A DNA stretch of 64,000 nucleotides from an uncultured bacterium (GCA_964483365.1 CAZABL010000006.1:6859-70858), one strand, 5' to 3'; shown: positions 25,538 to 51,542, numbered from the stretch's first letter. Numbers and translations: made by a program. The notes: generated by a model from the letters alone, not told the origin.

Positions 25538-26806
25538 ATGCTCAAACCTGAAGATAACGAACGGCTCGTCCGTATCGGCCCCGGGACGCCGATGGGCGCC
25601 GTATTCCGCCGCTACTGGCAGCCCGCACTGCTCAGCTCTGAGCTTGCGGAGCGTGACGGACCGCCCATACGCCTCCGCCTGCTCGGCGAGGACCTCGTCG
25701 CGTTTCGCGCGAGCGACGGCAGCGTCGGCCTCGTCGACGCGTACTGCCCGCACCGCCGCGCGCCACTGTATTTCGGACGCAACGAAGACTGCGGGATCCG
25801 CTGCGTCTATCACGGCTGGAAGTTCGACACCAGCGGCGCGTGCGTCGACATGCCGTCGGAGCCGCCGGACAGTCTGTTTCGCTCGAAGGTGACGCTCACC
25901 GCGTATCCGACCTTCGAAGCGGGCGGGATCGTGTGGACGTACATGGGCGTCCCCGAGGATGCGCCGCCGCCGCCCGACTACGAGTGGCTGCGCGCGCCGG
26001 ACACGCACCGCTTCGTCTCCAAGACCTTCGAGCACGCCAACTATCTGCAAGGACTCGAGGGCGGGCTCGACACCGCGCACTCGTCGTTCGCGCACAACGA
26101 GCGGCTCGGCGACAAGAACTGGATCCGTAACCGCGACGGCGCGCCGCGGATCGACGTCGAGCGCACCGACTACGGCTTCTCGTACGTCTCGACCCGCGAT
26201 CTCGGCGAGGACGGGCTGTACGTGCGTGTCTATCACTACATCATGCCGGCACAGCAACTGCGCGGTTCGATCACCGGGCTGATGGGTGGACGCGCCGAGG
26301 TCCCCAAGATCGACGGGCACGTCTGGATCCCGATCGACGACGAGCACACGTGGGTGTTCAACTTCGCGTACGGCTACGACGCGAGCGTTCCGCTCAGCGC
26401 CAAGTTCGCCGAGGAATGGGAGACGATGTTCGGCCGTGGCAAAGACGATCTGCTTCCGGGGTTCCGCTTGAAGAAGAACTTGGCTAACGATTACCTGATC
26501 GACCGCGAGCGTCAGAAGACGAAAACGTTCACCGGGATCGTCGGGATCAACACGCAAGACTTCGCGCTGCAGGAAGGGATGGGCCCGATCCCCGACCGCT
26601 CGCAAGAGCATCTCGGCACCTCCGACAAAGCGATCATCGCGTGCCGGCAGCTGTTGCTCGAGGCGACGACGCGCGTCGAGCGCGGCGAAGCGCCGCGCGG
26701 GCTCGATCCCGCGACATATCGCGACGTGCGGCCGTACGACGACTATCTCGAGCGCGGGCGCGAATGGCGCGACGCGTTCGCCGCGGAGTTGGCAGCGAAA
26801 TGGTGA
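25538..26806 (+). CDS. Rieske [2Fe-2S] aromatic ring-hydroxylating oxygenase, alpha-only (phthalate-family type), Rieske-1
   Basis: ORF 25538..26806. Rieske motif CPHRRAPLYFGRNEDCGIRCVYHGWKF. The mononuclear-iron region is GLDTAHSSFAHN. Confidence 0.9.
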   Translation: MLKPEDNERLVRIGPGTPMGAVFRRYWQPALLSSELAERDGPPIRLRLLGEDLVAFRASDGSVGLVDAYCPHRRAPLYFGRNEDCGIRCVYHGWKFDTSGACVDMPSEPPDSLFRSKVTLTAYPTFEAGGIVWTYMGVPEDAPPPPDYEWLRAPDTHRFVSKTFEHANYLQGLEGGLDTAHSSFAHNERLGDKNWIRNRDGAPRIDVERTDYGFSYVSTRDLGEDGLYVRVYHYIMPAQQLRGSITGLMGGRAEVPKIDGHVWIPIDDEHTWVFNFAYGYDASVPLSAKFAEEWETMFGRGKDDLLPGFRLKKNLANDYLIDRERQKTKTFTGIVGINTQDFALQEGMGPIPDRSQEHLGTSDKAIIACRQLLLEATTRVERGEAPRGLDPATYRDVRPYDDYLERGREWRDAFAAELAAKW

Positions 26807-30178: not shown

Positions 30179-30871
30179 ATGCTGATCGCAGCGAACCACG
30201 AAGCAGATGACACGATCGTGACGCGCCTGGGGCGTCTGGATGCGTGCGCGCTCTCCGATGCGCTCGATGCGCTCGGCATGCCGGGGACGGTGACGGGGAT
30301 CCCGCAGCGCGCCAGCGCGCGACGGATCGCCGGACGCTGTATCACCGTCAAGCTCGTCCCCAGGGATCAAGCACCGCGGCACGACGGTCCGCCGCGCCAT
30401 CTCGGCTCGACGGCGGTCGAGGCCGGTGGTCCGGGGACGATCGTCGTCGTTGAGCAGCGCACCGGGATCGACGCGGGCTCGTGGGGCGGGATCCTCTCGC
30501 TCGCCGCCAAGGTCCGCAAGATCGAAGGCGTCATCGCCGACGGACCGGTGCGCGACATCGACGAAGCGCGGCAATACGACTTCCCGATCTTCGCGCGGAC
30601 GCTCACCGCGTTCACCGCGCGCGGCCGTGTTGCCGAAGCGGCGACGAATGTTCCCGTGACGATCGGCGGCGTCTCCGTCGAACCGGGCGATTACGCACTT
30701 GCCGACAACAGCGCCGTCGTCTTCGTCCGCGCCGACGAGATCGAACGCGTCCTTGCGACTGCCGAACGGCTTGCCGCGCGCGAAGCCGCGATGGCGAAGG
30801 CCCTGCTCTCCGGCGAGCGCGTGAGCGTTGTGATGGGCGCCAACTACGAGACGATGCTGGTGAAAGAATGA
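30179..30871 (+). CDS. RraA-fold protein 1 (RraA / HMG-CHA aldolase superfamily)
   Basis: ORF 30179..30871. It contains LSDALDALG, GVIADGPVRDIDE and PVTIGGVSVEPGDYALADNSAVVFV, the RraA-family core. Confidence 0.75.
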   Translation: MLIAANHEADDTIVTRLGRLDACALSDALDALGMPGTVTGIPQRASARRIAGRCITVKLVPRDQAPRHDGPPRHLGSTAVEAGGPGTIVVVEQRTGIDAGSWGGILSLAAKVRKIEGVIADGPVRDIDEARQYDFPIFARTLTAFTARGRVAEAATNVPVTIGGVSVEPGDYALADNSAVVFVRADEIERVLATAERLAAREAAMAKALLSGERVSVVMGANYETMLVKE

Positions 30872-31548
30872 ACGGCGAAACAACGGTGCCCGACCGCAAC
30901 GTCGAGCGCGTCGCACAGCTCGACACGGCGACGATCAGCGACGCGCTCGATCGGCTCGGGCTGATCGGACAATGTCGCGGCATCCTGCCGCGCGACGGGC
31001 GCTTTCGGCTCGCCGGGCGCGCGTACACGCTGCACTACGCGATCGCGGCGAACCCTGCGGGGACGGTCGGCGACTACATCGACGACGTCCCGCCGGGGAG
31101 CGTGCTCGTGCTCGACAACGCCGGCCGTACCGAGGGGACGGTCTGGGGTGACATCCTCACCGAGGTCGCGCACCGGCGCGAGATCGCCGGGACGGTGATC
31201 GACGGCGTGTGCCGTGACGTCGCGCTCTGCGTCGAGCTCGGCTACCCGGTGTTCAGCGCCGGGCACTGGATGCGCACCGGTAAGGACCGCGTGCAGCTCG
31301 AGGCGACGAATGTTCCGGTGAGCATCGGCGGCGTACGCGTCGAGCCGGGCGATCTGCTGCGCGGCGACGCCGACGGCGTCGTCTGCGTCGCGCGCCGCGA
31401 CGAAGAGCGCGTGCTGGCGATCGCCGAAGAGATCGCACGGGTCGAGGACGGAATTCGCGCCGCCGTGCGCGCCGGGCTGCGCCTGGACGCCGCGCGCAGC
31501 CGCTTCGCCTATCACAGCCTCCAGTCGCGGGAGCGTGCGTCACAGTGA
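30868..31548 (+). CDS. RraA-fold protein 2
   Basis: ATG 30868 overlaps the upstream stop (ATGA). It contains ISDALDRLG, GTVIDGVCRDV and PVSIGGVRVEPGDLLRGDADGVVCV. Confidence 0.75.
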   Translation: MNGETTVPDRNVERVAQLDTATISDALDRLGLIGQCRGILPRDGRFRLAGRAYTLHYAIAANPAGTVGDYIDDVPPGSVLVLDNAGRTEGTVWGDILTEVAHRREIAGTVIDGVCRDVALCVELGYPVFSAGHWMRTGKDRVQLEATNVPVSIGGVRVEPGDLLRGDADGVVCVARRDEERVLAIAEEIARVEDGIRAAVRAGLRLDAARSRFAYHSLQSRERASQ

Positions 31549-32222
31549 TGGAGCATGCGTTTGCGTTCTACACGTTGCCGACGGTGACGCGCGAGTTCGC
31601 GCGCCCGTCGCGCGAGCTGCTCGACGCCGCGCGGCGTTTCCCGTCCGCGACGCTGCACGAGGCGTCCGGTCAGCGGGGCGCGTTCCCCGCGGCGCTCAAG
31701 CCGGTCGATCCGGCGATGCGCGTCTGCGGTCCCGCGTTGACGGTGCACGCACCGGCCGGCGACAACCTCTGGATCCACCGCGCGATCGCGCTCGCGCAGC
31801 CGGGCGATGTCCTGGTCGCGACCGTCGACAACGACTACGAGCACGGCTACTGGGGTGAGATCATGTCGACCGCGGCGAGCGCGCGCGGCATCGGTGGACT
31901 CGTCATCGACGGCTGCGTGCGCGATGCAGCGCTGCTCACCGAGATCGGCGTTCCCATCTTCGCGCGCGGGTTGTCGATCCGCGGGACAACCAAAGATTTC
32001 GCCGCACGCGGTTGGCTCAACAGCGCGCTGCAGCTCGGCGACGTGACGGTGCGGCCCGGCGATCTCGTCGTCGGCGACGTCGACGGCGTCGTCGTCGTCG
32101 CGCAAGAGCGCATCGCCGAGACGCTCGACGCGGCGCAGCAGCGCGAAACAAAGGAAGCAGCGGTCCTCGAGCGCTTACGGCGTGGCGAGACGACGCTCGA
32201 GATCTATGGATGGGACCGCTGA
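31545..32222 (+). CDS. RraA-fold protein 3, LigK/GalC-like 4-carboxy-4-hydroxy-2-oxoadipate aldolase candidate
   Basis: GTG 31545 or ATG 31548 overlaps the upstream stop. It contains ATLHEASGQRGAF, GLVIDGCVRD and GDVTVRPGDLVVGDVDGVVVV. It has the C-terminal helical tail seen in class II pyruvate aldolases of this fold. Confidence 0.8.
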   Translation: MMEHAFAFYTLPTVTREFARPSRELLDAARRFPSATLHEASGQRGAFPAALKPVDPAMRVCGPALTVHAPAGDNLWIHRAIALAQPGDVLVATVDNDYEHGYWGEIMSTAASARGIGGLVIDGCVRDAALLTEIGVPIFARGLSIRGTTKDFAARGWLNSALQLGDVTVRPGDLVVGDVDGVVVVAQERIAETLDAAQQRETKEAAVLERLRRGETTLEIYGWDR

Positions 32223-32223
32223 G

Positions 32224-33219
32224 ATGCCAACGATCGAACTGAGCGCCGCGCTCTCCGTCAATGAACGCACGCAACCGCTCCTCGAGGGGAGCGTCTCGCC
32301 CGAGGCGATTCGCCTCGTCGCGACCGGCGTCCATCCGTCCGAGATGTTTTGGCGCCAGCTCAAGTTCGCCGAGTTCGACGTCTCCGAGATGTCGATCGCA
32401 TCGCTGATGATCGCAACCGCCCGCGAGCCGACGGGCTGGGTCGCGCTCCCCGTCTTCACCTCGCGCAACTTCTTCCACACCCGCGTCCTGGTGCGCAGTG
32501 CAGCGGGAATCGAAAAGCCGGAAGATCTGCGCGGAAAGCGCGTCGGCGTCGCAGAGTACCAACAGACGGCAGCGGTGTGGTCGCGCGGAATTCTCAAGGA
32601 CGAGTTCGGCGTCGATCCGACCGAGATCGAATGGTTCATGGAGCGCTCGCCGGAGAAAAGTCACGGCGGCGTCACCGGGTTCACGCCGCCACCCGGCGTG
32701 CGCTTCCACTACATCTCGCCGGATTCCGATCTGGGCGCGATGCTGCTTGCCGATGAGCTCGACGCGCTGCTCGTGTATCTCCCGGTGCGCAATCTCGTCG
32801 ATCGCAGTCGCGCCGATCTTTCGCGTGACCCGCGCGCGCGTCTGCTCTTCCCTGACGCGGGCGCCGAAGGGCGGCGCTATTACGCCAAGACGGGGATGTA
32901 TCCGATCAACCACTGCGCGGTCGTGCGTCGATCGCTCGTCGAACGCCATCCGTGGGTCGTGCTCAACCTCTACAACGCGTTCCTCGCGGCAAAAGAGCTC
33001 GTCGCGGAACGGCGCAACGAGTCGCTGCGACCGTATCTCGAGACCGGTGTCCTCAACGGGTCGGCGAGTGTCGCGCTGGGGCAGGACCCGATGGCGTACG
33101 GCGTGCGCGCCGCGCGTCCGGTCCTCGAGACGATCAGCCGCTATCTGCACGAGCAGGGGCTGACGCCGCGCCGCGTGGGACTCGAGGAAGTTTTCGCGCC
33201 GAACACGCTGGATCTCTAA
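32224..33219 (+). CDS. 4,5-dihydroxyphthalate decarboxylase-like protein (PhtD/Pht5 family)
   Basis: ATG 32224 lies inside ORF 32182..33219. The product is 331 aa and contains FAEFDVSEMSIASL, LPVFTSRNFFHT, LRGKRVGVAEYQQTAAVW and GMYPINHCAVVR. From memory it is colinear with phthalate-pathway decarboxylases. Confidence 0.75.
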   Translation: MPTIELSAALSVNERTQPLLEGSVSPEAIRLVATGVHPSEMFWRQLKFAEFDVSEMSIASLMIATAREPTGWVALPVFTSRNFFHTRVLVRSAAGIEKPEDLRGKRVGVAEYQQTAAVWSRGILKDEFGVDPTEIEWFMERSPEKSHGGVTGFTPPPGVRFHYISPDSDLGAMLLADELDALLVYLPVRNLVDRSRADLSRDPRARLLFPDAGAEGRRYYAKTGMYPINHCAVVRRSLVERHPWVVLNLYNAFLAAKELVAERRNESLRPYLETGVLNGSASVALGQDPMAYGVRAARPVLETISRYLHEQGLTPRRVGLEEVFAPNTLDL

Positions 33220-33220
33220 G

Positions 33221-34234
33221 GTGGCGCAGATCGTCGCCGCGCTCGCAACCTCGCACGGGCCGTTGCTCTCGACGCAGCCCGAGATGTGGCATCTGCGCGC
33301 ACAAGACGACCGTGGGAACCCCGCGCACTGGTACCGCGGTACGTCGTACGATTTTCCGTCGCTCCTCGAGCATCGTGCGCCGGGCTTCGCCGCGCAGGCG
33401 ACCGATGCGGTGAAGCGCGAGCGGTACGAGCGCTGCCAGCGCGCGATCGCGGAGCTTGCGCGCCGCTTCCGTGAGGCGCGCGCCGACCTGGCGATCATCT
33501 TCGGCAACGATCAGCGCGAGATCTATCACGAAGAGCTGACCGGCGCGTTCACGATCTTCAACGGCAGCGAGATTCCGTCGATCCCGTTTTCGGACAAGCA
33601 GAAGGCGTCGATGCCGCAGGGCGTTTTGCTCGCCGAGCGCGGACACACGCCGCCGGGCGGCGCCGTCTATCGCGGCGCGCCCGACGCCGCCACCGCGCTC
33701 GTCGCCTCGCTGCTCGACAGCGAGTTCGACGTCGCGACCTCCGAGCGCATCCCGCTGCACGACGGCGAGGCACGCGGGATCCCGCACGCATTCGGCTTCG
33801 TGTACCGGCGGATCATGGAAGACGCGCCGCCGCCGTCGGTCCCGATCTTCACCAACGTCGGCGAAGGAGTCAATCGTCCGCGGCTGCGCCGCGTGCTGGC
33901 GTTCGGCCATGCGATGAAGCGCGCGATCGACGCGCTCCCGTCCAATCTGCGCGTCGTCTGCATCGCGTCGGGCGGGCTGACGCATTTCTGCGTCGACGAA
34001 GAGCTCGACGCGCAGATCCTCGACGCGATCCGGCGCGGTGACGAGGCGGCGCTCGCCGCGTTTCCGGAAGAATTCTTTTACGGCAACACCTGCGAGATCA
34101 AGAGCTGGTATGCGCTCGCGGCGTGCATGAACGACTGCGGTCGCACGATGCAGATGATCGACTACGTCCCGTGTTACCGCACCGAAGCGGGGACCGGGAG
34201 CGCGATGGGCTTCGCCGCGTGGGAGGCCGCGTGA
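33221..34234 (+). CDS. Class III extradiol ring-cleavage dioxygenase, LigB-family, stand-alone (LigB-1)
   Basis: ORF 33221..34234 (GTG start). The N-terminus is IVAALATSHGP, and ASGGLTHF lies near the C-terminus, as in LigB-type enzymes. Confidence 0.75.
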   Translation: MAQIVAALATSHGPLLSTQPEMWHLRAQDDRGNPAHWYRGTSYDFPSLLEHRAPGFAAQATDAVKRERYERCQRAIAELARRFREARADLAIIFGNDQREIYHEELTGAFTIFNGSEIPSIPFSDKQKASMPQGVLLAERGHTPPGGAVYRGAPDAATALVASLLDSEFDVATSERIPLHDGEARGIPHAFGFVYRRIMEDAPPPSVPIFTNVGEGVNRPRLRRVLAFGHAMKRAIDALPSNLRVVCIASGGLTHFCVDEELDAQILDAIRRGDEAALAAFPEEFFYGNTCEIKSWYALAACMNDCGRTMQMIDYVPCYRTEAGTGSAMGFAAWEAA

Positions 34235-34980
34235 TGCGCGGATTGCGCGGGCGTAAGGCGCTCGTCACCGGCGGAGCGCGCGGGTTGGGCGCTGCGGCGG
34301 CGCTGCGGCTCGCGGAAGAAGGCGTGGACGTTGGGATCCTCGACCGTGACGACGCGCGCGCGACCGTCGAGCGCGCACGCGGTCACGGCGTGCGTGCCGA
34401 GAGCGTCAGCGCCGACGTCCGTGACGAAGCCGCGGTCAACGGTGCGATGGGCGCGATCGTCGAGCGCTTCGGCGGGATCGACGTGCTGGTCAACAATGCC
34501 GGCGTGCTCGCGCCGCGGGTTCCCTTTGAAAAGATGAGCCGCGACGACTTCGCGCGTTATCTCGATGTGAACGTGCTCGGCACGTTCGTGATGACGAAAG
34601 CCGCTCTGCCGCATCTGCGCACGAGCAGTGCCGGACGGATCGTGAACGTCGCGTCGCGCACGTTCTTCATGGGAAACCCGGGGCAGAGCGGCTACGTCGC
34701 GAGCAAGGGTGGGATCATCGGTCTCACCCGCAGCCTCGCGCGCGAGCTCGGGCCTGCCGGGATCACCGTGAACGCGGTGATGCCGGGGATGGTTCCGACC
34801 GAGGGGACGCGCGAGAACAACGCTGAGTCCGTCTTCGTTGACGTTGCGAAACGCCAGGCGATCGACCGGATCGTCGAACCTGCCGATCTCGCCGCGCTCA
34901 TCGCGTTTCTCGCAAGCGACGATGCCGCGATGATAACGGGTCAGGCGATCGTCTGCGACGGCGGAGGGTACCTGCATTGA
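34234..34980 (+). CDS. Classical short-chain dehydrogenase/reductase
   Basis: ATG 34234 shares one nucleotide with the upstream stop (TGATG). It has TGGARGLG, NNAG and YVASKGG, the classical SDR motifs. Confidence 0.85.
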   Translation: MRGLRGRKALVTGGARGLGAAAALRLAEEGVDVGILDRDDARATVERARGHGVRAESVSADVRDEAAVNGAMGAIVERFGGIDVLVNNAGVLAPRVPFEKMSRDDFARYLDVNVLGTFVMTKAALPHLRTSSAGRIVNVASRTFFMGNPGQSGYVASKGGIIGLTRSLARELGPAGITVNAVMPGMVPTEGTRENNAESVFVDVAKRQAIDRIVEPADLAALIAFLASDDAAMITGQAIVCDGGGYLH

Positions 34981-35924
34981 GTGCGGAGACGACAGGCAAT
35001 CTGCCCCAAGGGATTGCGCGCGTCAGCGTCCTCCCCGGTCCGCACGATCACGCCGGCGAGAGCGACTGGGACCGCATCATCCTTCCCGACGGCGTCAAGG
35101 AGCGGCTCAAGAACCAGGCGCTGCTGACGCTCCGTCATCGCGAGCAGTTGCGCGCCGTCGGTCTGGGTCCGCAAGGACTGATGGTCTTCGCGGGGCCGCC
35201 GGGGACCGGCAAGACGACGCTGGCGCGCGGGCTCGCGTTCGAGGTTGCGCACGAGCTCGGTCACGAGGGAACGACGACGTTCCTCGAGATCGATCCGCAC
35301 GCGCTGCCGAGCGAGATGCTCGGCGAAAGCCAACGCGCGGTCACGAAACTGCTCACGAAGACGATCCCCGAGTACGCGATGCGGCGCCCGACGACGATCG
35401 TGCTGATCGACGAGGTCGAAGCGTTCGCGGTTCGTCGCAGCGCGGCGTCGTTCGAGACGAATCCGGTCGACTTGCACCGCGCGACCGACGCGGTCCTCAT
35501 GGGGCTCGACCAAGTCGCGGCGCGTTGCCCGGGGACGCTCTTCATCGCGACGACGAACTTCATCGAGGCGATCGATGAAGCGATGCTCTCGCGCGCCGAT
35601 CTCGTGCTGCCGTTCCATCTCGCCAGCGGCGATGTCGCCGCGCAGATCATCACCCGTTCGCTGCGCGCGCTCGCGACCGCGTGGCCTGATATCCTCGCGC
35701 TCGCGCGCGACGAGGACGCGATTCGGGCGCTCGCCGCCGATCTCGCCGGTTGGGACGGACGCCGCCTCACGAAACTTCCGCTCGTCGCGCTCGCCCGGCG
35801 CGAGTCGACCGCGCGCGACCCCAACCGGCTCACCTTCGACGATCTGCGCGCCGCCTGCGAAGAGCTCGACCCGCGCCGTTTTGCACAGCGCGCCGAGCGC
35901 CGGCTGACCGAGATCCTCGCCTGA
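34977..35924 (+). CDS. AAA+ ATPase of the Pch2/TRIP13-like type
   Basis: ORF 34977..35924 with TTG overlapping the SDR stop (TTGA). Walker A is GPPGTGKT and Walker B is IVLIDEVE. Family-like strings outside the core include WDRIILPDGVKERL, LEIDPHALPSEMLGES, NPVDLHRATDAVLMGLDQV, ATTNFIEAIDEAMLSRADL and GRRLTKLPLVALA. Confidence 0.8.
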   Translation: MSAETTGNLPQGIARVSVLPGPHDHAGESDWDRIILPDGVKERLKNQALLTLRHREQLRAVGLGPQGLMVFAGPPGTGKTTLARGLAFEVAHELGHEGTTTFLEIDPHALPSEMLGESQRAVTKLLTKTIPEYAMRRPTTIVLIDEVEAFAVRRSAASFETNPVDLHRATDAVLMGLDQVAARCPGTLFIATTNFIEAIDEAMLSRADLVLPFHLASGDVAAQIITRSLRALATAWPDILALARDEDAIRALAADLAGWDGRRLTKLPLVALARRESTARDPNRLTFDDLRAACEELDPRRFAQRAERRLTEILA

Positions 35925-35944: not shown

Positions 35945-36898
35945 ATGCCGCTTTCGTCCTACGCTCGACCGCTCGCACTCGTCGCCGTCCTCGCGCTCGC
36001 CGCTGCGTCGTCGCACGACGCTCGCGCCGCCGACCGGCCGTCCGTCACCGTCGCGGTCACCCGCTCCGCCGACGCGGTGCCCTTCTTCTACGCGCTGAAA
36101 ACCGGCATGTTCGAGAAAGCGGGACTCGTCGTGCACTACGACGCGATGGCGAGCGGCGGCGCAATCGCATCGGCCGTGGTCGGCGGCGCGGCGACGATCG
36201 GCTTCAGCAACGTGCAGACGCTGATCGCCGCGTACGCGAAACACGTTCCGTTCACGATCGTTGCTCCCGGCGGCGAGTACAACGACGCGAAGCCGACGAC
36301 CGAGCTCCTCGTCGCCGGTGACTCACCGATCAAGACGGCAAAGGATCTCGAAGGCAGAACCGTGGCGGTCGGCTCGCTGCAGGATCTGCAGACGCTCAGC
36401 GTCTTCGCGTGGATGGCGGCGAACGGCGCGGATCCCGCCAAGGTGCAGTTCATCGAGACGCCGCAGAGCGCAGCCCCGGCGCTGCTGCAAACCAAACGTG
36501 CCAACGCGATCGTCGTCTCCGAGCCGAACTTGGAGTACGCACAGAACAACGGCGCGCGCGTCCTCGGGAAGCCGTACAGTGCGATCGCGCCGCGGCTCCT
36601 GGTGAGCAGTTGGTACGCGACGCAGGCGTGGGCGAAGGCGAATCCCGACGCGGTCACGCGCTTCGCCGACGTGATGCGCCGTGCGAGCGAATACGTAAAC
36701 GCGCATCCTGATGAGATGGTCGGGATCATCCACGACTACACCAACATCCCGCTCGAGACGCTGCGCAAGATGGCACGCGCGAAGCAAGGGACGAGCATCG
36801 CGCCGGCCGACGTGCAAGCCGTCATCGACACCGCGGCGCGTTTCAAGGTCATCGATAAACCTTTCCCCGCTCGCGAGATCATCGCCGGGAACGCCTGA
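35945..36898 (+). CDS. NMT1/THI5-like substrate-binding protein, SBP-3
   Basis: ATG 35945 lies inside ORF 35750..36898. The signal is MPLSSYARPLALVAVLALAAASSHDARA. It is paralogous to the other NMT1-like SBPs. Confidence 0.8.
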   Translation: MPLSSYARPLALVAVLALAAASSHDARAADRPSVTVAVTRSADAVPFFYALKTGMFEKAGLVVHYDAMASGGAIASAVVGGAATIGFSNVQTLIAAYAKHVPFTIVAPGGEYNDAKPTTELLVAGDSPIKTAKDLEGRTVAVGSLQDLQTLSVFAWMAANGADPAKVQFIETPQSAAPALLQTKRANAIVVSEPNLEYAQNNGARVLGKPYSAIAPRLLVSSWYATQAWAKANPDAVTRFADVMRRASEYVNAHPDEMVGIIHDYTNIPLETLRKMARAKQGTSIAPADVQAVIDTAARFKVIDKPFPAREIIAGNA

Positions 36899-36915: not shown

Positions 36916-37947
36916 ATGGTCAACCGTACCGTAACGGGACTCACGCACTACGACATCCAACAGCGCCGGCGGCGTCAGATCGTCGAGGACGCGCGCACGC
37001 AGCAACGCGCGATCGTGCGCAAGAACGACGTCGAGCTCGTGCAGACACCGCGCGGGATGCGCTCGGGCTGCTACATCGGCGTCGACGGCGATCGGCCGTC
37101 GCGCATCATCGACGCGTACGTGCACGAGGTCGATCCCGGCGTCGTCACGACGATTCACCGCCATTCGTGGGACGCGGTGATGCTCGTCGTCGAGGGCCAC
37201 GGCTGGACCGAAGTCAACGGCGTGCGCCACGAGTACCGTCCCTGGGACAGCATCTATCTGCCGGCCTGGGCGTGGCACCGCCAAGGCAACGACGGCACGA
37301 AGACCGCGCGCTTCATGACGTTTTCGACCGAGCCGACGACCTCGGTGATCGGCGCGTCGTTCCTCGAGGACCGCGGTCAGGCACCGTTCGCCGAGCTGCC
37401 GGGGCCGCCGGTGACGAGCGCCGGTGTCACCGGCGCCGATCCATACGCGCGGCGACTGCGCCGCCTCGACGAGTACCAGAGCGACTATCGCACCGGGAAG
37501 ATCCACGTGCGGTACGAGGATCTCACCTTGCTCGTGAACCCGAAGGGAACGCGAAGCACGTTCATGCTCGATCCGTTTCTGGGCAGCAAGACGTCGGGGC
37601 TGACGCTGGCGATGAATCAGCTTGCGCCGCAGAAGTGGCAGAAGAAGCATCGTCACGGCGGCGAGGCGTGGCTGTACGCGCTCGAGGGCCGCGGCCACAG
37701 CGTGATCGACGGGCAGCGCTACGACTGGAGCGAAGGCGATCTCGTCGTCGTCGACCACTGGGCGTGGCATCAGCACTTCAACAGCGATCCCGACCTGACG
37801 GCGCGGCTGGTGCGCGTGCACAACTTCTCGGGGATCTACGACGCGATGCGCGCGCTGCTCGATCCGCTCAATCTCGAAGAGGAAGAGCCCAACTCCGAGC
37901 CCGACGTCTCGCACGTCGTCTGGCCCGCGGATCGACGGCCGGACTAG
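36916..37947 (+). CDS. Bicupin dioxygenase (gentisate 1,2-dioxygenase-like)
   Basis: ORF 36916..37947. It has two cupin modules, with HRHSWDAVMLVVEGHG and HRHGGEAWLYALEGRG. Confidence 0.75.
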   Translation: MVNRTVTGLTHYDIQQRRRRQIVEDARTQQRAIVRKNDVELVQTPRGMRSGCYIGVDGDRPSRIIDAYVHEVDPGVVTTIHRHSWDAVMLVVEGHGWTEVNGVRHEYRPWDSIYLPAWAWHRQGNDGTKTARFMTFSTEPTTSVIGASFLEDRGQAPFAELPGPPVTSAGVTGADPYARRLRRLDEYQSDYRTGKIHVRYEDLTLLVNPKGTRSTFMLDPFLGSKTSGLTLAMNQLAPQKWQKKHRHGGEAWLYALEGRGHSVIDGQRYDWSEGDLVVVDHWAWHQHFNSDPDLTARLVRVHNFSGIYDAMRALLDPLNLEEEEPNSEPDVSHVVWPADRRPD

Positions 37948-40153: not shown

Positions 40154-41455
40154 ATGCTGAGCACGGCGGAGAACGAACGCCTGACGCACATCGGTCCGGG
40201 AACCCCGATGGGGGAACTGCAGCGGCGCTATTGGCACCCGATCGCGGGGATCGACGAGATGAGCGACCGGTGGACGAAACGTGTTCGGCTGCTCGGTGAA
40301 GATCTCGTCCTCTACAAGGATCGCAGCGGACGCTTCGGTCTGATCCACGAGTTTTGTCCGCATCGCCGCGCATCGTTCGCGTACGGGATCCCGGAAAGCG
40401 ACGGCATTCGCTGCCCGTACCACGGCTGGAAGTTCGACGGGGCGGGCCACTGCATCGAACAGCCGAACGAACCGGCCGAGAGTAGCTTCAAGAGCAAGGT
40501 GCATACGCCGGCGTATCCGGTGCAAGAGTTGGGTGGACTGCTGTGGGCGTACCTCGGGCCGCAGCCGCTGCCGCTCTTGCCGCGTTGGGAAGGACTCGTG
40601 CACGACGGTGCGATCCGCACGATCGGGATGGCGGTCGTCCCGTGCAACTGGCTCCAGATCATGGAGAACTCGTTCGATCCGATCCACACCGAGTGGCTGC
40701 ACGGCCGATTTCAGGAGTTTCTCGAGGAAGAGCGCGGCGCGAAGTACGCGATCTCACGCAAGCATCTCGCAATCGCGTTCGAGGAGTTCGAGTACGGTGT
40801 TTACAAACGGCGCCTGCTCGCCGGAGCGCGCGAGGACTCCGACGACTGGAAGGTCGGCCACCCGGTGATCTTCCCCAACACCCTCGCGGTCGGCAGCGGC
40901 GGCGGGCGCCTGTGGAAGATGCACGTGTATCAGATCCGCGTCCCGATCGACGACGAGAACACGCTGCACATCTGGTACACCGCGTACGAAGCGCCGCCGA
41001 GCGTGACGATCCCCGAGCACCTGCTCGCGCGCATCCCGGTCTACGACGTTCCCTTCCGCGACGAGAACGGCGAGTTTCTCATGGACATGATCGATGCACA
41101 AGACATCATGGCATGGGTCTCGCAGGGACGGATCTTCCAGCGCCAGACGGAAGCGCTCGGGACGTCCGACAAGGGCGTCATTCTCTTCCGCAAGATCCTT
41201 GCGCGCGAGCTCGAGAAAAGTGAGCGCGGCGAGGATCCGATGGGTGTGATTCGCGATCCGGCGAAGAACGAGGTCATCGCGTTCCCGCTCGAGCGCGACA
41301 AGGCGCACTTCACCGACGGCTTCGAAAGCCTGATGCGCCGCCAATACGCGCGCTATGCCCCGTTCGCGGACGACTTGGTACGACTGTTCAACGACTATAG
41401 CGAGCAGCGTCTGCGGGAAGAGTTCCCGCAGACCGCCGCCGCGGGAGGATCATGA
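40154..41455 (+). CDS. Rieske [2Fe-2S] oxygenase alpha-only subunit, Rieske-2
   Basis: ORF 40154..41455. It has the Rieske motif CPHRRASFAYGIPESDGIRCPYHGWKF and NWLQIMENSFDPIHTEWLH. Confidence 0.9.
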   Translation: MLSTAENERLTHIGPGTPMGELQRRYWHPIAGIDEMSDRWTKRVRLLGEDLVLYKDRSGRFGLIHEFCPHRRASFAYGIPESDGIRCPYHGWKFDGAGHCIEQPNEPAESSFKSKVHTPAYPVQELGGLLWAYLGPQPLPLLPRWEGLVHDGAIRTIGMAVVPCNWLQIMENSFDPIHTEWLHGRFQEFLEEERGAKYAISRKHLAIAFEEFEYGVYKRRLLAGAREDSDDWKVGHPVIFPNTLAVGSGGGRLWKMHVYQIRVPIDDENTLHIWYTAYEAPPSVTIPEHLLARIPVYDVPFRDENGEFLMDMIDAQDIMAWVSQGRIFQRQTEALGTSDKGVILFRKILARELEKSERGEDPMGVIRDPAKNEVIAFPLERDKAHFTDGFESLMRRQYARYAPFADDLVRLFNDYSEQRLREEFPQTAAAGGS

Positions 41456-43314: not shown

Positions 43315-44319
43315 TCAGCTATTCATCCCGAGCAATTGGCGAAACTGCCCGATGAGCGTCTTGTATTCGTTCCGGTCGGGCGCGGGCAGCACGTAGTAGG
43401 GCTGCTTCGGATCGAAGACACGCGGGTTGTTGTGCACGTCGGTGCGCGCCGACGTCCGCCCGCTCACGTCGACGAAGTATTGCTGTCCGTCTTTGGAGAG
43501 AAGCCAGTCGAGCACAACGCGTGCCGCGTTCGGATGCGGCGCGCCTTGCATCATCCCGATCGGGACCAGCCCGACGATCACGGGTTTCGGCGCGACCGCG
43601 TCGACCGGGCGTCCGCGCTGGCGCTCCATCTCGACCATGTAGGCATACGCGGTCGGCGTCGCATCGAACTCGCCGGCTTCGAGCTGCGTCACGGTGATGG
43701 TGTGGCCGTTGGTGATGAACGGATGATTCGCGGCAAGCCGCTTGAGCAGCTCTTCGCCGTTGACTTGCGTCTTGAGGGTCCCGCTGTACCAGTTGTATGC
43801 TGACGCGTCGATCGCGATCTTTCCGTTCCATTCGGGCTTGGCGAGATCGGCGAGGCTCGTCGGCGGTTTGAGTCCGTCCGCTTTGAGCTTCTGCGGGTTG
43901 AACGCGATCACGGTCGTGTCGTTGTAGAGCGTCGTCCACAATCCGGCTGGGTCGACGGTCCCCTTCCCGAAATGCTCGGGGTCGCGGACGCGATAGGGCT
44001 GCAAGACGCCGGACGCTGCGAGTTGCCGCAGCGAGAAATCGTCCCCGGAGACGAGGTCGGCGATCACCTTCCCGCTCTCGTGCTCGGTCATCGCGCGCGC
44101 CGGGATCATCGAGCTTCCGACCTGCAGCGCCTGCAGCTTGATCTCGGGATGGAGCTTCTGGAAGTGATCGACGAGCGTGTTGAGCGTGCGCGTGTCGACC
44201 GACGAGTACCACACCACGGTCCCCTCGTTCGGTTGCGTCGCAGCCGGCGTCGGAGACGCGAAGAGCGCGAGCGCGGCGGCGGCGACGCCGAGCGTGCGGA
44301 TGCGTGAGATGATCGTCAT
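43315..44319 (-). CDS. Family-1 extracellular solute-binding protein (iron(III)/AfuA-like type), SBP-5
   Basis: ORF 43315..44319. The signal is MTIISRIRTLGVAAAALALFA, followed by VVWYSSVD, typical of this SBP class. Confidence 0.75.
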   Translation of the reverse strand: MTIISRIRTLGVAAAALALFASPTPAATQPNEGTVVWYSSVDTRTLNTLVDHFQKLHPEIKLQALQVGSSMIPARAMTEHESGKVIADLVSGDDFSLRQLAASGVLQPYRVRDPEHFGKGTVDPAGLWTTLYNDTTVIAFNPQKLKADGLKPPTSLADLAKPEWNGKIAIDASAYNWYSGTLKTQVNGEELLKRLAANHPFITNGHTITVTQLEAGEFDATPTAYAYMVEMERQRGRPVDAVAPKPVIVGLVPIGMMQGAPHPNAARVVLDWLLSKDGQQYFVDVSGRTSARTDVHNNPRVFDPKQPYYVLPAPDRNEYKTLIGQFRQLLGMNS

Positions 44320-45582: not shown

Positions 45583-46896
45583 CTATACCTTTCCGGCGCC
45601 AACCGGAGCGCGCGCCGGGTGCGACGGATCGACCAGGTCGTCGTCGTCTTCCGCTTCACCCGTGAAGACCGCGAGCAGCTCGCCGGCGATCGGCGAGAAG
45701 CTCGACATGTGCCGCTTGAGCAAGCTCGCGAAGCCGTCCGAGAAGTGCTCTTTCCCCTTCTCGAGCGGGAGATCGATGCGCTGATTCTTGGCGGGATCGC
45801 GCATCACGTTGAGCGGATCCTCGCCGGCCTCCATCTTCTTGAGCTCGCGCAGCAGCATGCGGCGGTAGAGCGTCACGCCGCGGTCGCCGGCACCGAGCGC
45901 CTCGCGCGTGCGATCGGCGATCGGGCCTTGCGTCACCCACGCCATGATGTCTTGCGCGTGGATGTACTCGAGCATGTACTCGCCGTTGGCGTCCTTGATC
46001 GGCGGCTCGTAAGCCGGGACGTTCTCGAGCAGGTGCTTGGGAACGCGCGCGCCGATCGGCGGCATGTACGCGTGATACCAGTAGTGCATCGTGTGCGTGT
46101 CGTCGACCGGCACACGAATTTGGAAGACGTACTGCTGCCACAATCCGCCGCCGCTGCCGACGGCGAGCGTCGTCGGGAAGACGACCGGGTGTCCGACCTT
46201 CCAGTCGTCGCTGTCTTCCGATTGTCCGACGAGCAGACGGCGCTTGATGATCCCGTACTCGAACTCGTCGAAGGCGATCTTCGCATGATGCTTGCTGATC
46301 GCGACCTGCACGCCGTCGCGCTCGCGCAGAAACTCGTAGAGCCGCCCGTGGAGCCACTCGGTGTGGAGCGGATCGACGGAGTTCTCCATGATCTGCAGCC
46401 AGTTGCACGGGATGACGGCCTTGCCGACGTGACGGATCGTGCCCTCGACAACGAAGCCGTCCCAGCGCGGCAGCAGCGGCGCTGGCTGCGGGCCCAGATA
46501 CGCCCAGGCCAGCCCGCCGAGAATCTGCACCGGGTAGGCCGCAGTCGTGATGCGGTCCTTGAACGTGCTGCCCTCGGGCTCGTTGGGCTGTTCGATGCAC
46601 TGGCCGGTGCCGTCGAACTTCCAGCCGTGATACGGACAGCGCAGCCCGTCGGTCTCGGGGATCCCGTACGCGAGCGAGGCGCGGCGATGCGGGCAGAACT
46701 CGGCGATGAGCCCGTATGCGCCCGAGCGATCGCGGTAGAGGACCAGATCTTCGCCGAGCACGCGGACGCGCATCGTCCAGCGGTCGCCGAGCTCGGAGAT
46801 CGCCGCGACGGGGTGCCAATAGCGTCGCAGCAAAGCCCCCATCCGCGTCCCCGGTCCGACCCGGGTCAGCAGCTCATTTTCTTCGGCCGTCAGCAT
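45583..46896 (-). CDS. Rieske [2Fe-2S] oxygenase alpha-only subunit, Rieske-3 (paralog of Rieske-2)
   Basis: ATG 46896 follows GGAAGGAG, inside ORF 45583..46923. It has CPHRRASLAYGIPETDGLRCPYHGWKF. By eye it is about two-thirds identical to 40154..41455. Confidence 0.9.
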   Translation of the reverse strand: MLTAEENELLTRVGPGTRMGALLRRYWHPVAAISELGDRWTMRVRVLGEDLVLYRDRSGAYGLIAEFCPHRRASLAYGIPETDGLRCPYHGWKFDGTGQCIEQPNEPEGSTFKDRITTAAYPVQILGGLAWAYLGPQPAPLLPRWDGFVVEGTIRHVGKAVIPCNWLQIMENSVDPLHTEWLHGRLYEFLRERDGVQVAISKHHAKIAFDEFEYGIIKRRLLVGQSEDSDDWKVGHPVVFPTTLAVGSGGGLWQQYVFQIRVPVDDTHTMHYWYHAYMPPIGARVPKHLLENVPAYEPPIKDANGEYMLEYIHAQDIMAWVTQGPIADRTREALGAGDRGVTLYRRMLLRELKKMEAGEDPLNVMRDPAKNQRIDLPLEKGKEHFSDGFASLLKRHMSSFSPIAGELLAVFTGEAEDDDDLVDPSHPARAPVGAGKV

Positions 46897-46990
46897 CCGC
46901 GCAACGCTCCTTCCGCGCTTCAACGCTAACCGAACGAACCGATGCGTTCAACGGCACGCACCGCAACGACCGATGCGCCCTGCGCAACAA

Positions 46991-47398
46991 TCAGAGGTGT
47001 CCGCGGCAGTCCTTACAACGGCCGCGCAACGTCACGTCGGCATCGCTGACCTCGGCCTCGAGCCGCTGCGCTGCGATGTGCAGCGCGCGCGGCGAGATCA
47101 CCAGATCGACGTCGCACATCCGCCCGCACGCCTCGCAGACGAAGTGGCCGTGCTTCTTGCCCGTCGGTTCGTAGAACGCACCGCCGACACCCGGGACGTG
47201 GACTTCCTCGAGCAAATGCAAATCGCGCAGACGAACGACCGCTCGGTAAACCGTCGCGAAACCGATACCCGGCTGACGTTCCCGTGCACGCGTGTAGAGA
47301 TCGCCGATGCGTACGTGCGCGCCGGTAGCGCCCTGCTCGCGCACGATCTCGTAGACGAGCTCGTAGTTCTTGGGCAGGTGCCAAGCGTGTGAAGCCAT
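46991..47398 (-). CDS. Fur-family metalloregulator
   Basis: ATG 47398 (MASHAWHLPKNYELVYEIV) lies inside ORF 46991..47428. It has a wHTH and two CxxC pairs (CEAC, CKDC). Confidence 0.8.
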   Translation of the reverse strand: MASHAWHLPKNYELVYEIVREQGATGAHVRIGDLYTRARERQPGIGFATVYRAVVRLRDLHLLEEVHVPGVGGAFYEPTGKKHGHFVCEACGRMCDVDLVISPRALHIAAQRLEAEVSDADVTLRGRCKDCRGHL

Positions 47399-47412
47399 CG
47401 TACGTAGCTCCC

Positions 47413-47441
47413 TTGCACAGTATATCATCGCGCACTATCAT
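47413..47441 (+). promoter_or_regulatory. Putative promoter with duplicated TATCAT (possible Fur-family operator) upstream of the rhodanese gene
   Basis: TTGCAC (47413..47418), a 17-nt spacer, then TATCAT (47436..47441). A second TATCAT lies at 47423..47428. The element overlaps the 5' end of the divergent Fur gene region. Confidence 0.3.
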
Positions 47442-48132: not shown

Positions 48133-51100
48133 CTAGTGGAAGTTCCTCGCCCGCACGTTCTTCGTCGTCGGTTCGGCGAGGCTGAACTGCCAGCAGCGCT
48201 TCATGATCACGTCGATGCAGCCGGACTCTTTCTGGAGCACGCCTTCGACGATCAGGCAGTGTGAGCCGCGGATCACGCGGCGGTTGCGCTCGTAGACGTC
48301 GGGACGGACGATCACGTTGACGAGCCCCGTCTCGTCCTCGATCGTGAGGAACACGAAGCCCTTCGCGGTCCCCGGGCGCTGGCGCGTAATGACCAGTCCG
48401 CCGATCTTGCAGACCAAGTTCTTCGGCATCGTGGGGAGACGGCTGGCGCACAGCACGTTCTGCGCGTCGAGCTGCGGGCGGAAATGCGCGATCGCTTGCA
48501 CATCGCTCACCCCGGTCGCGCGAATGTCGAGCGCCGTCGTCTCGACCGCCGAGAGCGCGAGAAAACGCGGCTGCGGCTCGTTCTCGATCTCCATCGCACG
48601 CCCGAGCTCGCCGCGCGCCTCGCGTTCGTCGAGCCCGCGCAGCGCCCACATCGCTTCGCGCCGCGTCGCATACCATGGTGCGAACGCCCCAGCGGCGGCG
48701 AGGTTCTCGAGCGCCTCGCGCTCGAGCGCGGTCCGCCGCGCGAAGTCGAGCAGATCGGCGAACTCGCCGTCGCCGAGCGCGCGCTCGAGCCGCGTGCGCT
48801 GCACCTCGCCCATCCCGCGCACGAGATGAAAGCCGAGCCGCAGCGCGCCGTCACCGTCAACGAAGCTCCACCACTCGCTCTCGTTGACGGTGATCGGCTT
48901 GACGTTCACCCCGTGACGGCGTGCATCGTTGACGAGCACCTCCGTCGAATAGAAGCCCATCGGCTGGACGTTGAGGATCGCGGCGCAGAAGATCGCCGGC
49001 TCGTGACACTTCACGTACGCTGACGCGTACGCGAGCAGCGCGAACGAGGCGGCGTGCGACTCGGGGAAGCCGTAGTCGGCGAACCCTTGGAGCATATGGA
49101 AGAGCCGGTCGGCGTCGTCGCGCGAGATCCCGTTGGCGATCATCCCTTCGACCAGCCGCGGATAGATCTGCGCCATGCGCTCGCGCGAGCGTTTATGTCC
49201 CATTGCGCGCCGCAGCCGGTCGGCCTCGCCGGCGGAGAAGCCCGCGGTCTCCATCGCCATGCGCATCCCTTGCTCTTGGAACAACGGGACGCCGAGCGTG
49301 CGCTTGAGAATCGGCTCGAGTTTGGGATGCGGATAGGTCACCGGCTCTTGCCCGTTGCGCCGGCGTAGGAACGGGTGGATCATGTCCCCTTGGATCGGCC
49401 CAGGGCGAATGATCGCGACCTGCATGACGATGTCGTAGAAGCGTTCGGGCCGTAAGCGCGGGAGCATCGACATCTGCGCGCGCGACTCGACCTGAAAAAC
49501 GCCGATCGAGTCTGCGCGCTGCAGCATCTCGTACGTTGGGCGGTCGTCCGCCGGGATATTCCCGAGCGCGAGCGATTCGCGCTCGGGATAGCGTCGCCGG
49601 TAGAGCGCGAACGCGTCGCGCAGCAGCGAGAGCATTCCCAGTCCCAGCAAGTCGATCTTGATCAAACCGAGGTCGGAGAGATCGTCCTTGTCCCATTGCA
49701 CGATCGTGCGATCGCGCATCGACGCCCACTCGATCGGCGCGACCTCGACCAGCGGTGAGCGCGTGATCACCATCCCGCCGCTGTGAATCCCCATGTGCCG
49801 CGGAAAGCCGTTGATCCGCCGGCACAGCGCCATCAGCAGCGCACCGAGCTCGCCGCCGACCGGCCCGCGCAGGTGCGTGTCGGGGTCGCGCGCCGTGCCG
49901 TCGTCCGCATCCTGGAATCCCGGCACGAGCGCCGGCATGCGTGAGTGATACACGTTCGAGGCCGCATCGAGGTCGCGCCGCTCGACGATCGACTCCGGGA
50001 GCGCCGCCTGCTCGACGTGCTCGGTCCCCAGCGCACCGGCGAGCGATTCGCGCGCGTCGTACTCGCGCACGATCGCGTCGACTTGCCCGAGCGTGAGTCC
50101 GAGCGCCTTGCCGATGTCGCGAATCGCCGAGCGCGTGCGGTACGTGATCACCTCGGCCGTCATCGCGGCGTGCTCGCGTCCGTAGCGTTTGTAGACGTAC
50201 TGGATCACCTGCTCGCGATCTTGGTGCGCGAAGTCGATGTCGATATCGGGGACCTCGCCGCGCTCTTCGGAGAGGAAGCGCTCGAAGAGCAGTTCGCCGC
50301 CGACGGGATCGATCGCGGTGATCCCCAGCGCGTAGCAGACCGCCGAGTTCGCCGCGCTGCCGCGGCCTTGCGCGAGCACGCCCAAGCGCTCGGCTTCGTT
50401 CGTGATGTCCCAGACGATCAGAAAGTACCCGGCGAGATCCATCCGTGCGATCACGCCGAGCTCGTATTCCAATTGCCGTTCGACCTTGGAGTCGAGCGGC
50501 AATCCATAGCGCCGCTTCGCACCTTCGTACACCAGCGTGCGCAGGTACGACTGCGCCGACGTCTCGTTCTGCGGGATCGGGAAGAGCGGAAACTCGCCGG
50601 CGAGGGTCGCGAGCCGGAACGTGCATTGCTCGGCGATCGCGACGGTATTGCGGATCGCGAGCGGAAACTCGGCGAACAGCCGCATCATCTGCGCTGGTGA
50701 TTTGAGCTGGTGCTCGTGGTTGGGTCGCAGCAGATTCCCCGCGTCGTGCAGGCGTGCGCCGTACTTCACGCAGGTGAGCACGTCGGCGAGCAGCGCGTCC
50801 TCACGCGTTGCGTACGCGACGCCGTTGGTCGCAACGTACGGCAGATCGACGCGCTCTCCCAAACGCACGAGCGCGCGCACGAGCGCCGCGTCCTCGGGAC
50901 GAACGTGGTGCTGCAGCTCGAGGTAGAAGCGTCCCGGGAAGAGATCGCGCAGCTGCGCAGCGAGCGCGACGGCCGCGTCGCCATCGCGTCGTAACAGCGC
51001 CTTCTCGATCAGCCCGTTGCGCCCGCCGGAGAGCGCGATGAGCCCGTCGGTCCGCCCCTCGAGATCCTCGAGCCGCAAGCGCGCGTCACGTTTGCGCCCG

Positions 51101-51474: not shown

Positions 51475-51491
51475 CGGACAGCCACGATACC

Positions 51492-51505
51492 CGAACAGGT
51501 GTTCG
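51492..51505. promoter_or_regulatory. Cheo/actinobacterial-type LexA (SOS) box
   Basis: CGAACAGGTGTTCG is a perfect CGAAC-N4-GTTCG palindrome, 17 nt upstream of the dnaE2 ATG. Confidence 0.6.
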
Positions 51506-51542
51506 ATTTCCCGCACGAAAACGACCGATGAGCGGAAACGGT

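Follow-up and report, generated by a model that had tools for sequence, protein, structure and literature searches.

ATPases of the Trip13/Pch2 family have, in the searchable literature, a single client class, the HORMA-domain proteins, and full-text literature searches returned prokaryotic Trip13 only alongside HORMA proteins and CBASS, the antiphage system that signals through cyclic oligonucleotides. In the structure of the E. coli Trip13:HORMA:CdnC complex, the extended N-terminus of HORMA lies in the pore, alternate Ser/Thr residues of this tail are held by His173 of pore loop 2, and removal of the tail abolishes Trip13 action (10.1101/694695). The CBASS enzyme is a negative regulator that disassembles the active complex (10.1101/694695). 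Here we describe an ATPase of this family encoded in a 64,000-nt stretch of DNA from an uncultured bacterium (GCA_964483365.1, CAZABL010000006.1:6859-70858; hereafter the window), which is paired with a bicupin, a protein with two cupin domains. This pairing, in place of HORMA and CD-NTase proteins, suggests that a remodeller has been recruited into metabolism, and the reading that we favor, with a probability of roughly 0.55, is that the window ATPase serves the bicupin as a dedicated remodeller or activase, probably in connection with its metal center. The same literature searches found no report in which Trip13, or an AAA+ ATPase of any kind, was tied to a bicupin; the bicupin-linked branch of the family is large and apparently undescribed.

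The window ATPase is a Trip13/Pch2-family ATPase, because profile, structure and catalytic-motif results agree. The PADLOC TRIP13 model PDLC00915 matched it with E = 1.2e-91 and 305 bits, aligning its residues 6-301 to profile positions 6-295 of 302, while the next PADLOC family, IetA, reached 61 bits and the other TRIP13 model, PDLC00914 (1-HORMA type), gave E = 1.6e-15. Used as a query against the PDB, a 32-homolog profile had its best matches in human TRIP13 and C. elegans PCH-2 (1e-36 to 2e-35), and Cdc48 came next at 3.5e-27, nine orders of magnitude behind. The AlphaFold2 model of the ATPase (mean predicted local distance difference test score, pLDDT, 86) retrieved PCH-2, TRIP13 and the E. 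coli CBASS Trip13 (6p8v) at Foldseek ranks 1-11. Furthermore, sensor 1 N194 and the Arg finger R206 are invariant among the 32 homologs, with G261 and R262 nearly so, and N194, R206 and the GR motif align to N300, R312 and the GR motif of TRIP13. A preliminary description of the window, made from the sequence alone, had proposed this family from motifs, and its identification was upheld by the PADLOC profile, the PDB profile search and Foldseek: the quoted strings GPPGTGKT, IVLIDEVE, WDRIILPDGVKERL, LEIDPHALPSEMLGESQRAVTKL, NPVDLHRATDAVLMGLDQV, ATTNFIEAIDEAMLSRADL and GRRLTKLPLVALA are all found in the translation, and alignment with human TRIP13 showed the TRIP13 string it gave, GRVLRKLPFLAHA, to be correct. 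The suggested comparison with rival AAA+ profiles was run as well, and firm placement in another AAA+ clade was not seen. CbbX (24.8 bits, cut-off 459) and SpoVK (22.8 bits, cut-off 423) were rejected, as was MoxR, for which no match of that type was obtained and AAA_5 stayed under its cut-off at 16.6 bits. Pfam assigned the generic AAA domain alone, and NCBIfam has no specific model for the ATPase, the best match being the anti-phage ATPase IteA with 60 bits, far short of its cut-off of 510.

The short N-terminus pointed out in the preliminary description is real, in that alignment with human TRIP13 starts at TRIP13 residue 125 and about 30 residues precede the AAA core of the window ATPase; however, it does not represent the loss of a substrate-recognition domain. 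PDLC00915 has a length of 302 positions and the Trip13s of plasmid CBASS operons, at 268-311 aa, align from their N-termini, so this is the ordinary bacterial Trip13 layout.

Pairing with the bicupin is universal and co-evolving. A bicupin ortholog of ~345 aa (47-85% identity) adjoins the ATPase gene in 19/19 non-redundant loci with enough flanking DNA, which span at least six phylum-level lineages. In most loci it lies directly upstream, separated from the ATPase gene by 3-142 nt or overlapping it; close spacing is frequent, with gaps of 3 nt and, in locus L107, an overlap of 4 nt. The order ATPase, NMT1-type binding protein, bicupin was seen only in the window and in L001/L011. Pairwise identities of the two proteins correlated with r = 0.98 over 136 locus pairs, and the ratio of nonsynonymous to synonymous substitution rates (dN/dS) was 0.14-0.20 for the ATPase, which is thus under purifying selection, while the bicupin gave 0.12-0.28. 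The closest ATPase homologs fall into three groups by identity to the window ATPase, and every named source is a metagenome-assembled genome (MAG): a group at 68-84% comes from Vulcanimicrobiota/Eremiobacterota (Ca. Velthaea, Ca. Lustribacter), Limnocylindria and one MAG labelled Armatimonadota; a group at 54-61% identity comprises Burkholderiales, Acidiferrobacterales, Gemmatimonadales and others, and a group at 43-49% takes in Actinomycetia. Homologs of the ATPase form thousands of clusters, and the bicupin-type subfamily is abundant in soil. Individual clusters of the bicupin comprise as many as 900 sequences. A contig scan with a single ATPase query and strict peptide patterns recovered 7 loci only.

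Other genes of the operon did not show this linkage. The preliminary description had placed the ATPase in a catabolic operon, with its TTG start overlapping the stop of a short-chain dehydrogenase/reductase (SDR) gene and a binding-protein gene following 20 nt downstream, and both details were confirmed from the sequence: the start (34977-34979) and the SDR TGA stop (34978-34980) share TTGA, and the NMT1-type gene starts at 35945, 20 nt past the ATPase stop. The ATPase gene sits in a 15-gene same-strand string, from ~27 to 42.6 kb, in which a convincing intergenic terminator was not found, an arrangement that would also suit a different client (a LigB-type dioxygenase, a Rieske oxygenase, the SDR or one of the RraA triplet), with the bicupin linkage incidental. 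Outside the window clade, however, none of these neighbors is conserved. An SDR gene occurred in 2 of the 19 loci, an RraA gene in 3 (3/5 in the window clade, 0 in other clades), a LigB-type dioxygenase in 3 and a Rieske oxygenase in 4, versus the bicupin in all 19, and we consider such a client very improbable. The NMT1-type binding protein was likewise confined to the window clade (5/5 loci there, 0/14 elsewhere), and the SDR-ATPase-binding protein order, whose conservation the preliminary description had proposed to check, accordingly does not form a conserved unit. Of the earlier proposal that a remodeller or activase was recruited to service an operon enzyme, the general idea is favored by the evidence, with the bicupin as that enzyme, whereas the RraA triplet it offered as one example is not; its other example, an iron enzyme, came near, since the partner is a gentisate/salicylate-dioxygenase-like bicupin, but the bicupin itself had not been singled out.

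The genomic contexts of the family divide cleanly between bicupin and HORMA/CD-NTase. A tblastn search with the window ATPase, from which the CBASS comparison set of annotated plasmid 2-HORMA operons was drawn, gave matches in 13 of 72,556 plasmid records, and the 8 that were inspected (L098-L105) were all 2-HORMA type III CBASS operons, with 0 of the bicupin type. These operons encode Trip13, two HORMA proteins, a CD-NTase and an effector (NucC/DUF6602, SAVED or S-4TM), several also carry CapH/CapP-type regulators, and their Trip13s are 40-47% identical to the window ATPase. Fifteen HORMA and CD-NTase proteins (10 + 5) from five verified 2-HORMA CBASS operons, used as tblastn queries, gave zero matches in the window and zero in any bicupin locus, while the CD-NTase queries matched L034, L037 and all of L098-L105. 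The bacterial-HORMA family was also absent throughout the Pfam listings of the bicupin-locus neighborhoods. Locus L037, with a 46%-identical ATPase and no bicupin, had been a candidate exception to the pairing and was discarded as such, being a true CBASS locus by the HORMA/CD-NTase tblastn. L034 and L037 (46-47% identity), both without a bicupin, are CBASS operons, which is what makes the division clean, and none of the ATPase genes accompanied by HORMA-HORMA-CD-NTase (L034, L037, L098-L105) has a bicupin. In the window itself, a PADLOC scan of 51 open reading frames (ORFs) listed TRIP13 and no HORMA or CD-NTase model among the best 25 of 72 families, below which a weak match is still possible. 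The ATPase is surrounded by aromatic-catabolism and transport genes, with no CBASS effector and no mobile or defense-island setting in the window. The tblastn and PADLOC results bear out the earlier statement that this is a catabolic operon lacking HORMA and CBASS genes; the finding that it named as speaking against its proposal, HORMA/CD-NTase modules directly beside homologs elsewhere, holds for the distant relatives at 40-47% identity, but not for the bicupin-type subfamily at 43-84%.

Two defense-related explanations bear on these contexts. In the first, the gene would be a decaying, functionless orphan of a CBASS operon, as the preliminary description had offered in the form of an orphaned defense component, and the window does lack HORMA and CD-NTase genes by both tblastn and the PADLOC scan. 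This explanation is effectively refuted by the dN/dS of 0.14-0.20, by catalytic motifs that are invariant across 32 homologs, and by thousands of homolog clusters with a pore-loop-1 signature of their own and a widespread, co-evolving bicupin partner. In the second, Trip13 would act in a new conflict or defense module with the bicupin as its sensor or effector partner, in place of HORMA and CD-NTase; identity of 40-47% to genuine CBASS Trip13, the strong PADLOC TRIP13 match and the frequent recombination of defense components fit this proposal. It is nonetheless improbable, because the operons are chromosomal and catabolic or transport-related with no effector, integrase or defense-island neighbors, the eight inspected plasmid matches are all classical CBASS, the co-divergence of ATPase and bicupin (r = 0.98) resembles vertical inheritance, and the bicupin retains enzyme-like metal motifs.

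The bicupin-linked ATPases also differ from the CBASS-linked ones in their pore loops and C-termini. Pore loop 1 carries the signature P-S-x-[ML]-L-G-E-S-Q-R in every bicupin-linked clade, distant ones included, and in 120/120 of the closest homolog clusters, versus no CBASS-linked Trip13; there, the loop is of equal length and reads x-S-[SA]-x-x-G-[KQR]-[TS]-Q-x. Pore loop 2, NPVD.HRATDA, is almost identical in 2-HORMA CBASS Trip13. Scores against PDLC00915 were 276-322 bits for bicupin-linked ATPases versus 353-472 for CBASS Trip13s, and a His-rich C-terminal tail, typically HDHDHGHDH..., was found in 56/138 bicupin-type ATPases (41%) versus 0/48 of the CBASS type. A His pair in the N-terminal segment (PHxH / DHH) was considered as a further family feature and dropped, being present in the two main clades and missing from the 43-48% clades. 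In a neighbor-joining tree of 91 ATPase sequences with 100 bootstraps, subclades received support of 100, 100, 97 and 78, the CBASS cluster 40 and the node uniting the bicupin types 45. The tree thus supports the subclades and not the backbone, and it is the shared pore-loop-1 signature that argues for monophyly of the bicupin type.

The bicupin is of the gentisate 1,2-dioxygenase (GDO) type at the level of fold, and falls outside the GDO equivalog families. Its AlphaFold2 model has a pLDDT of 88, and its best matches by fold and profile are salicylate and gentisate 1,2-dioxygenases (PDB 3bu7, 2d40, 2phd, 4fag), at 18-20% identity and a TM (template modeling) score of ~0.55. In the C-terminal barrel, H245, H247, E250, H285 and H287 are invariant among 45 bicupin sequences, and the family has a conserved C-terminal WP.DRRP motif. 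No curated family was found that covers either the ATPase subfamily or the bicupin.

The N-terminus of the bicupin is conserved as well. The pattern M-x-x-[KR]-T-x-T-x-x-T-H-Y-x-[IV]-Q-x-x-R-R opens 120 of 120 bicupin homologs, its distance from the initiator Met being constant; T5 and T7 are at least 90% conserved, and H11, Q15, R18 and R19 are invariant. A GAGGA Shine-Dalgarno sequence 5 nt before the ATG backs this start. In the AlphaFold2 model, residues 1-10 are coil and lead into a helix spanning residues 11-28. The HORMA proteins of related CBASS operons begin with MTTVAVNTYTHSVTY, MSTSTSTTTYTRTHTATH and MSATFTSTYSRTHTAKY, and the near-invariant T5 and T7 of the bicupin are spaced two residues apart, as are the Ser/Thr contacts of the HORMA tail. 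On the ATPase side, His167 of the window protein is the equivalent of E. coli Trip13 His173 and is conserved in most bicupin-type ATPases.

Several observations on individual loci touch the bicupin and its tail. In L003 at 6942-7110 (identical with L016, the Ca. Lustribacter chromosome), the first 37 codons of the bicupin, including the tail MLNRTVTGLTHYDIQQRRRR, are out of frame with the rest, which is probably an assembly frameshift and otherwise a real pseudogenising change. A tail-less bicupin paralog was sought, to see whether the tail goes together with the ATPase, and only a mono-cupin in L012 turned up (526-~1000, minus strand), which has a His-rich C-terminal tail of its own (...EEPHDHQHSHDGRNGGHRHD) and lies a few kb from the bicupin-ATPase pair. 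In the 43-49% clade, a 431-aa protein with no Pfam match is encoded downstream of the ATPase in 3/3 loci and could be a third component of the module there; its gene overlaps the ATPase stop in L107/L108 and lies ~1.3 kb past the ATPase in L030, L031 and L035 (L107 7940-9235; L035 5626-6879; L030 2334-3461; L031 3308-3835).

A link to metal comes from the neighborhoods and from both proteins. Loci of the 54-61% clade have an Fe(III)-type solute-binding protein/ATP-binding cassette (ABC) importer in 9/11 cases, an EutA-like gene in 6/11, NicO in 3/11 and TctABC in 3/11. In six of its loci (L004/L007/L013/L014/L021/L025), a recurrent divergent unit on the opposite strand, upstream of the bicupin, encodes an Fe(III)-type binding protein, a small ORF, an EutA-like ASKHA ATPase, a fused permease and a TOBE_2 ABC ATPase, sometimes together with IclR and NicO. 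An SBP_bac_1 homolog of the window (43315-44319) was considered as an ortholog of the Fe(III)-type binding protein and rejected at 27% identity only. Because the His-rich tails and the metal-transport neighbors are restricted to the subfamily, and because both barrels of the bicupin keep their metal sites, a role at the metal center appears the likeliest purpose of the ATPase.

Pairing and co-divergence, together with the conserved tail and with threading machinery that has been retained, point to the bicupin as the client. That the two proteins interact physically, that the tail is threaded and that this serves the metal center is inferred. The ATPase is predicted to be an active hexameric remodeller of the Trip13/Pch2 type, whose client would be the bicupin encoded two genes downstream. 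Its pore loops would seize the short, unstructured, Thr-rich N-terminal tail of the bicupin, as CBASS Trip13 does the HORMA tail, and would then pull on the helix that follows (residues 11-28) and runs into the first cupin barrel. Such a pull could partly unfold or loosen the bicupin or its oligomer; its likeliest purpose would be the loading, exchange or resetting of the metal center or the expulsion of a dead-end ligand. The ATPase would then be an activase of a ring-cleaving-dioxygenase-like enzyme, by the logic of the Rubisco activases. A wider claim, held more tentatively and at somewhat less than even odds, is that a widespread, HORMA-independent Trip13/Pch2 lineage acts in core metabolism as a dedicated bicupin activase or metallochaperone that reads a HORMA-like Thr-rich tail.

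The main rival to metal-center maintenance holds that the ATPase is an off-switch. It would keep bicupin activity in check by taking the oligomer apart or inactivating it, and would play no part in metal loading or reactivation. The solved GDO and salicylate 1,2-dioxygenase (SDO) relatives of the bicupin are oligomeric enzymes. The pairing, tail and pore-loop evidence fits this possibility equally well, and the closest characterized relatives disassemble an active complex as negative regulators (10.1101/694695). We regard it as unlikely, because it leaves the His-rich C-tails and metal-transport neighbors, found only in the subfamily, unexplained, and because spending ATP to silence a co-transcribed catabolic enzyme has no obvious rationale.

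Several points nevertheless weigh against a dedicated activase of the bicupin. Homology gives no polarity between activation and inactivation, CBASS Trip13 being a negative regulator. The bicupin scores only 67.6 bits against gentisate_1_2 TIGR02272 (cut-off 442.1) and 76.4 bits against NF049978 (MabB; cut-off 650), and its Thr-rich tail could serve some other end, such as oligomerization. The window ATPase itself lacks a His-rich tail, the pore-loop-2 His is replaced by Ile in the Actinomycetia clade (L107/L108), and the binding-protein gene parts the ATPase from the bicupin in the window and in L001. Finally, the L106 contig carries a second tailed bicupin paralog with no adjoining ATPase. 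This paralog (6001-7032) is 72% identical to the window bicupin and stands in a Rieske-bicupin-NMT1-SDR setting; a bicupin-type ATPase (P0035) and a further bicupin (P0273) are present on this 4.6-Mb contig too, and one ATPase could serve both bicupins.

If the ATPase does remodel the bicupin, this would be the first non-HORMA client class of the Trip13 family and would widen its substrate range, and the pair, as a simple system of two proteins, would allow the reading of tail sequence by Trip13 pore loops to be studied. It would also represent a new type of enzyme activase or metallochaperone in aromatic catabolism, and a tail-threading module that moved between anti-phage immunity and enzyme maintenance. 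The bicupin-linked branch bears on the origin of the eukaryotic HORMA-TRIP13 pair. For annotation, the pore-loop-1 signature together with a bicupin neighbor would then provide a practical rule for telling the subfamily from the CBASS type; without it, homology-based defense annotation could mislabel these genes as TRIP13/Cap6.

The same-strand string that holds the ATPase and bicupin genes (Table 1) is part of a ~22-kb lignin-type aromatic-catabolism cluster, with three LigXa-like Rieske oxygenases, LigB/LigA-type dioxygenases, Amidohydro_2, three RraA-like genes, GFO/IDH/MocA oxidoreductases and several NMT1-type binding proteins. It looks like a cluster for the catabolism of lignin-derived biaryls or methoxy-aromatics in a Vulcanimicrobiota-like genome. 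The three RraA-like paralogs are probably LigK-type aldolase or decarboxylase enzymes, and the 331-aa protein encoded beside them, instead of belonging to a transporter, may be an enzyme that has the fold of a binding protein. An Lhr-type helicase, a DnaE-type polymerase and a Fur-family regulator are also present, which marks the window as chromosomal. The PADLOC scan was not attributed to ORFs, and its DpdJ (E = 0) and BrxHI matches very likely come from the Lhr helicase, which is probably a housekeeping helicase scoring on defense models, not a defense system. Further PADLOC matches among window ORFs, SngC (1.5e-68), mad3 (1e-48, 3 ORFs), mad8 (8e-27, 4 ORFs) and AriA (5e-19, 3 ORFs), are probably of generic ATPase/ABC type.

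Table 1. Features of the window, with positions counted from its first nucleotide
Feature	Position	Strand	Remarks
Trip13/Pch2-family AAA+ ATPase, bicupin-linked subfamily	34977..35924	+	315 aa, TTG start; ORF and translation
Shine-Dalgarno GGAGGG	34963..34968	+	8 nt 5' of ATPase TTG; from sequence
Walker A GPPGTGKT, residues 73-80	35193..35216	+	Invariant in 32-sequence alignment
Pore loop 1 region, residues 107-121, PHALPSEMLGESQRA	35295..35339	+	Subfamily signature P-S-x-[ML]-L-G-E-S-Q-R
Walker B IVLIDE, residues 141-146	35397..35414	+	D145, E146 invariant (32-sequence alignment)
Pore loop 2 region, residues 153-173, ...NPVDLHRATDAV	35433..35495	+	Includes conserved His167; alignment
Bicupin, two Cupin_2 domains	36916..37947	+	343 aa; conserved partner, proposed ATPase client
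Bicupin N-terminal tail codons, MVNRTVTGLTHYDIQQRRR	36916..36972	+	Thr-rich residues 1-10, then start of helix 11-28
N-terminal cupin barrel metal motif HRHSWDA (residues 81-87) to H121	37156..37278	+	H81, H83, H121 invariant, 45 sequences
C-terminal cupin barrel metal motif HRHGGEA (residues 245-251) to WHQH (284-287)	37648..37776	+	Alignment
SDR gene, Pfam adh_short	34231..34980	+	Stop overlaps ATPase start; local neighbor only
NMT1/SsuA-type solute-binding protein, Pfam NMT1	35945..36898	+	Signal peptide; between ATPase and bicupin genes
RraA-like (PF03737) tandem paralogs	30179-32222	+	230, 226, 225 aa; directly 3' of NAD-epimerase-like gene
331-aa protein	32224-33219	+	Weak Phosphonate-bd and SsuA matches, both below cut-off; 80%-identical L001 ortholog
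LigXa-like Rieske oxygenase (Rieske + LigXa_C)	25538-26806	+	
LigXa-like Rieske oxygenase (Rieske + LigXa_C)	40154-41455	+	
LigXa-like Rieske oxygenase (Rieske + LigXa_C)	45583-46923	-	
Lhr-type helicase	11942-16045	-	1367 aa; DEAD, WH_Lhr, DEAD_assoc
Fur-family regulator	46991-47428	-	~10 kb from bicupin; not a conserved neighbor
DnaE-type DNA polymerase III alpha subunit	48133-51516	-	1127 aa; just beyond catabolic cluster

Among known systems, the closest is the Trip13 of 2-HORMA type III CBASS (Cap6; for example of the P. aeruginosa ATCC27853 type), with which the window ATPase shares 40-47% full-length identity, a size of ~300 aa, model PDLC00915, pore loop 2, the N-terminal LP.G...LP...W segment and the AAA+ catalytic motifs. 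It differs in that the window type partners a bicupin, has its own pore loop 1 and a lower PDLC00915 score, stands in a chromosomal catabolic/transport setting and not a mobile or defense one, and belongs to a subfamily with His-rich C-tails (41% vs 0%). With the E. coli MS115-1 Trip13 (1-HORMA CBASS; 6p8v), the window ATPase has in common the fold (TM ~0.7), the pore-loop-2 His and the proposed grip on a Ser/Thr tail; however, identity is 19-20%, and the E. coli protein fits PDLC00914 and, unlike the window ATPase, has a double Arg finger and no sensor-2 Arg.

Eukaryotic TRIP13/PCH-2 resembles the window ATPase in GR.L.KLP of the small subdomain and in the E-S pair of pore loop 1, but the window ATPase is without the ~120-residue N-terminal substrate/adaptor domain, the W-F aromatic pair of pore loop 1 (M-L in the window) and a HORMA client or p31comet-type adaptor. 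The Rubisco activases Rca and CbbX, hexameric AAA+ proteins that are encoded beside a metabolic enzyme and thread a terminal tail of RbcL to reset the active site, are a functional analogy only, with no family relationship, and the client here would be a bicupin, not Rubisco. The window bicupin, in turn, is like the gentisate and salicylate 1,2-dioxygenases in its bicupin fold and HRH...WH.H metal motifs, and is set apart from them by its family-specific Thr-rich N-tail, its WP.DRRP motif and full metal motifs in both barrels.

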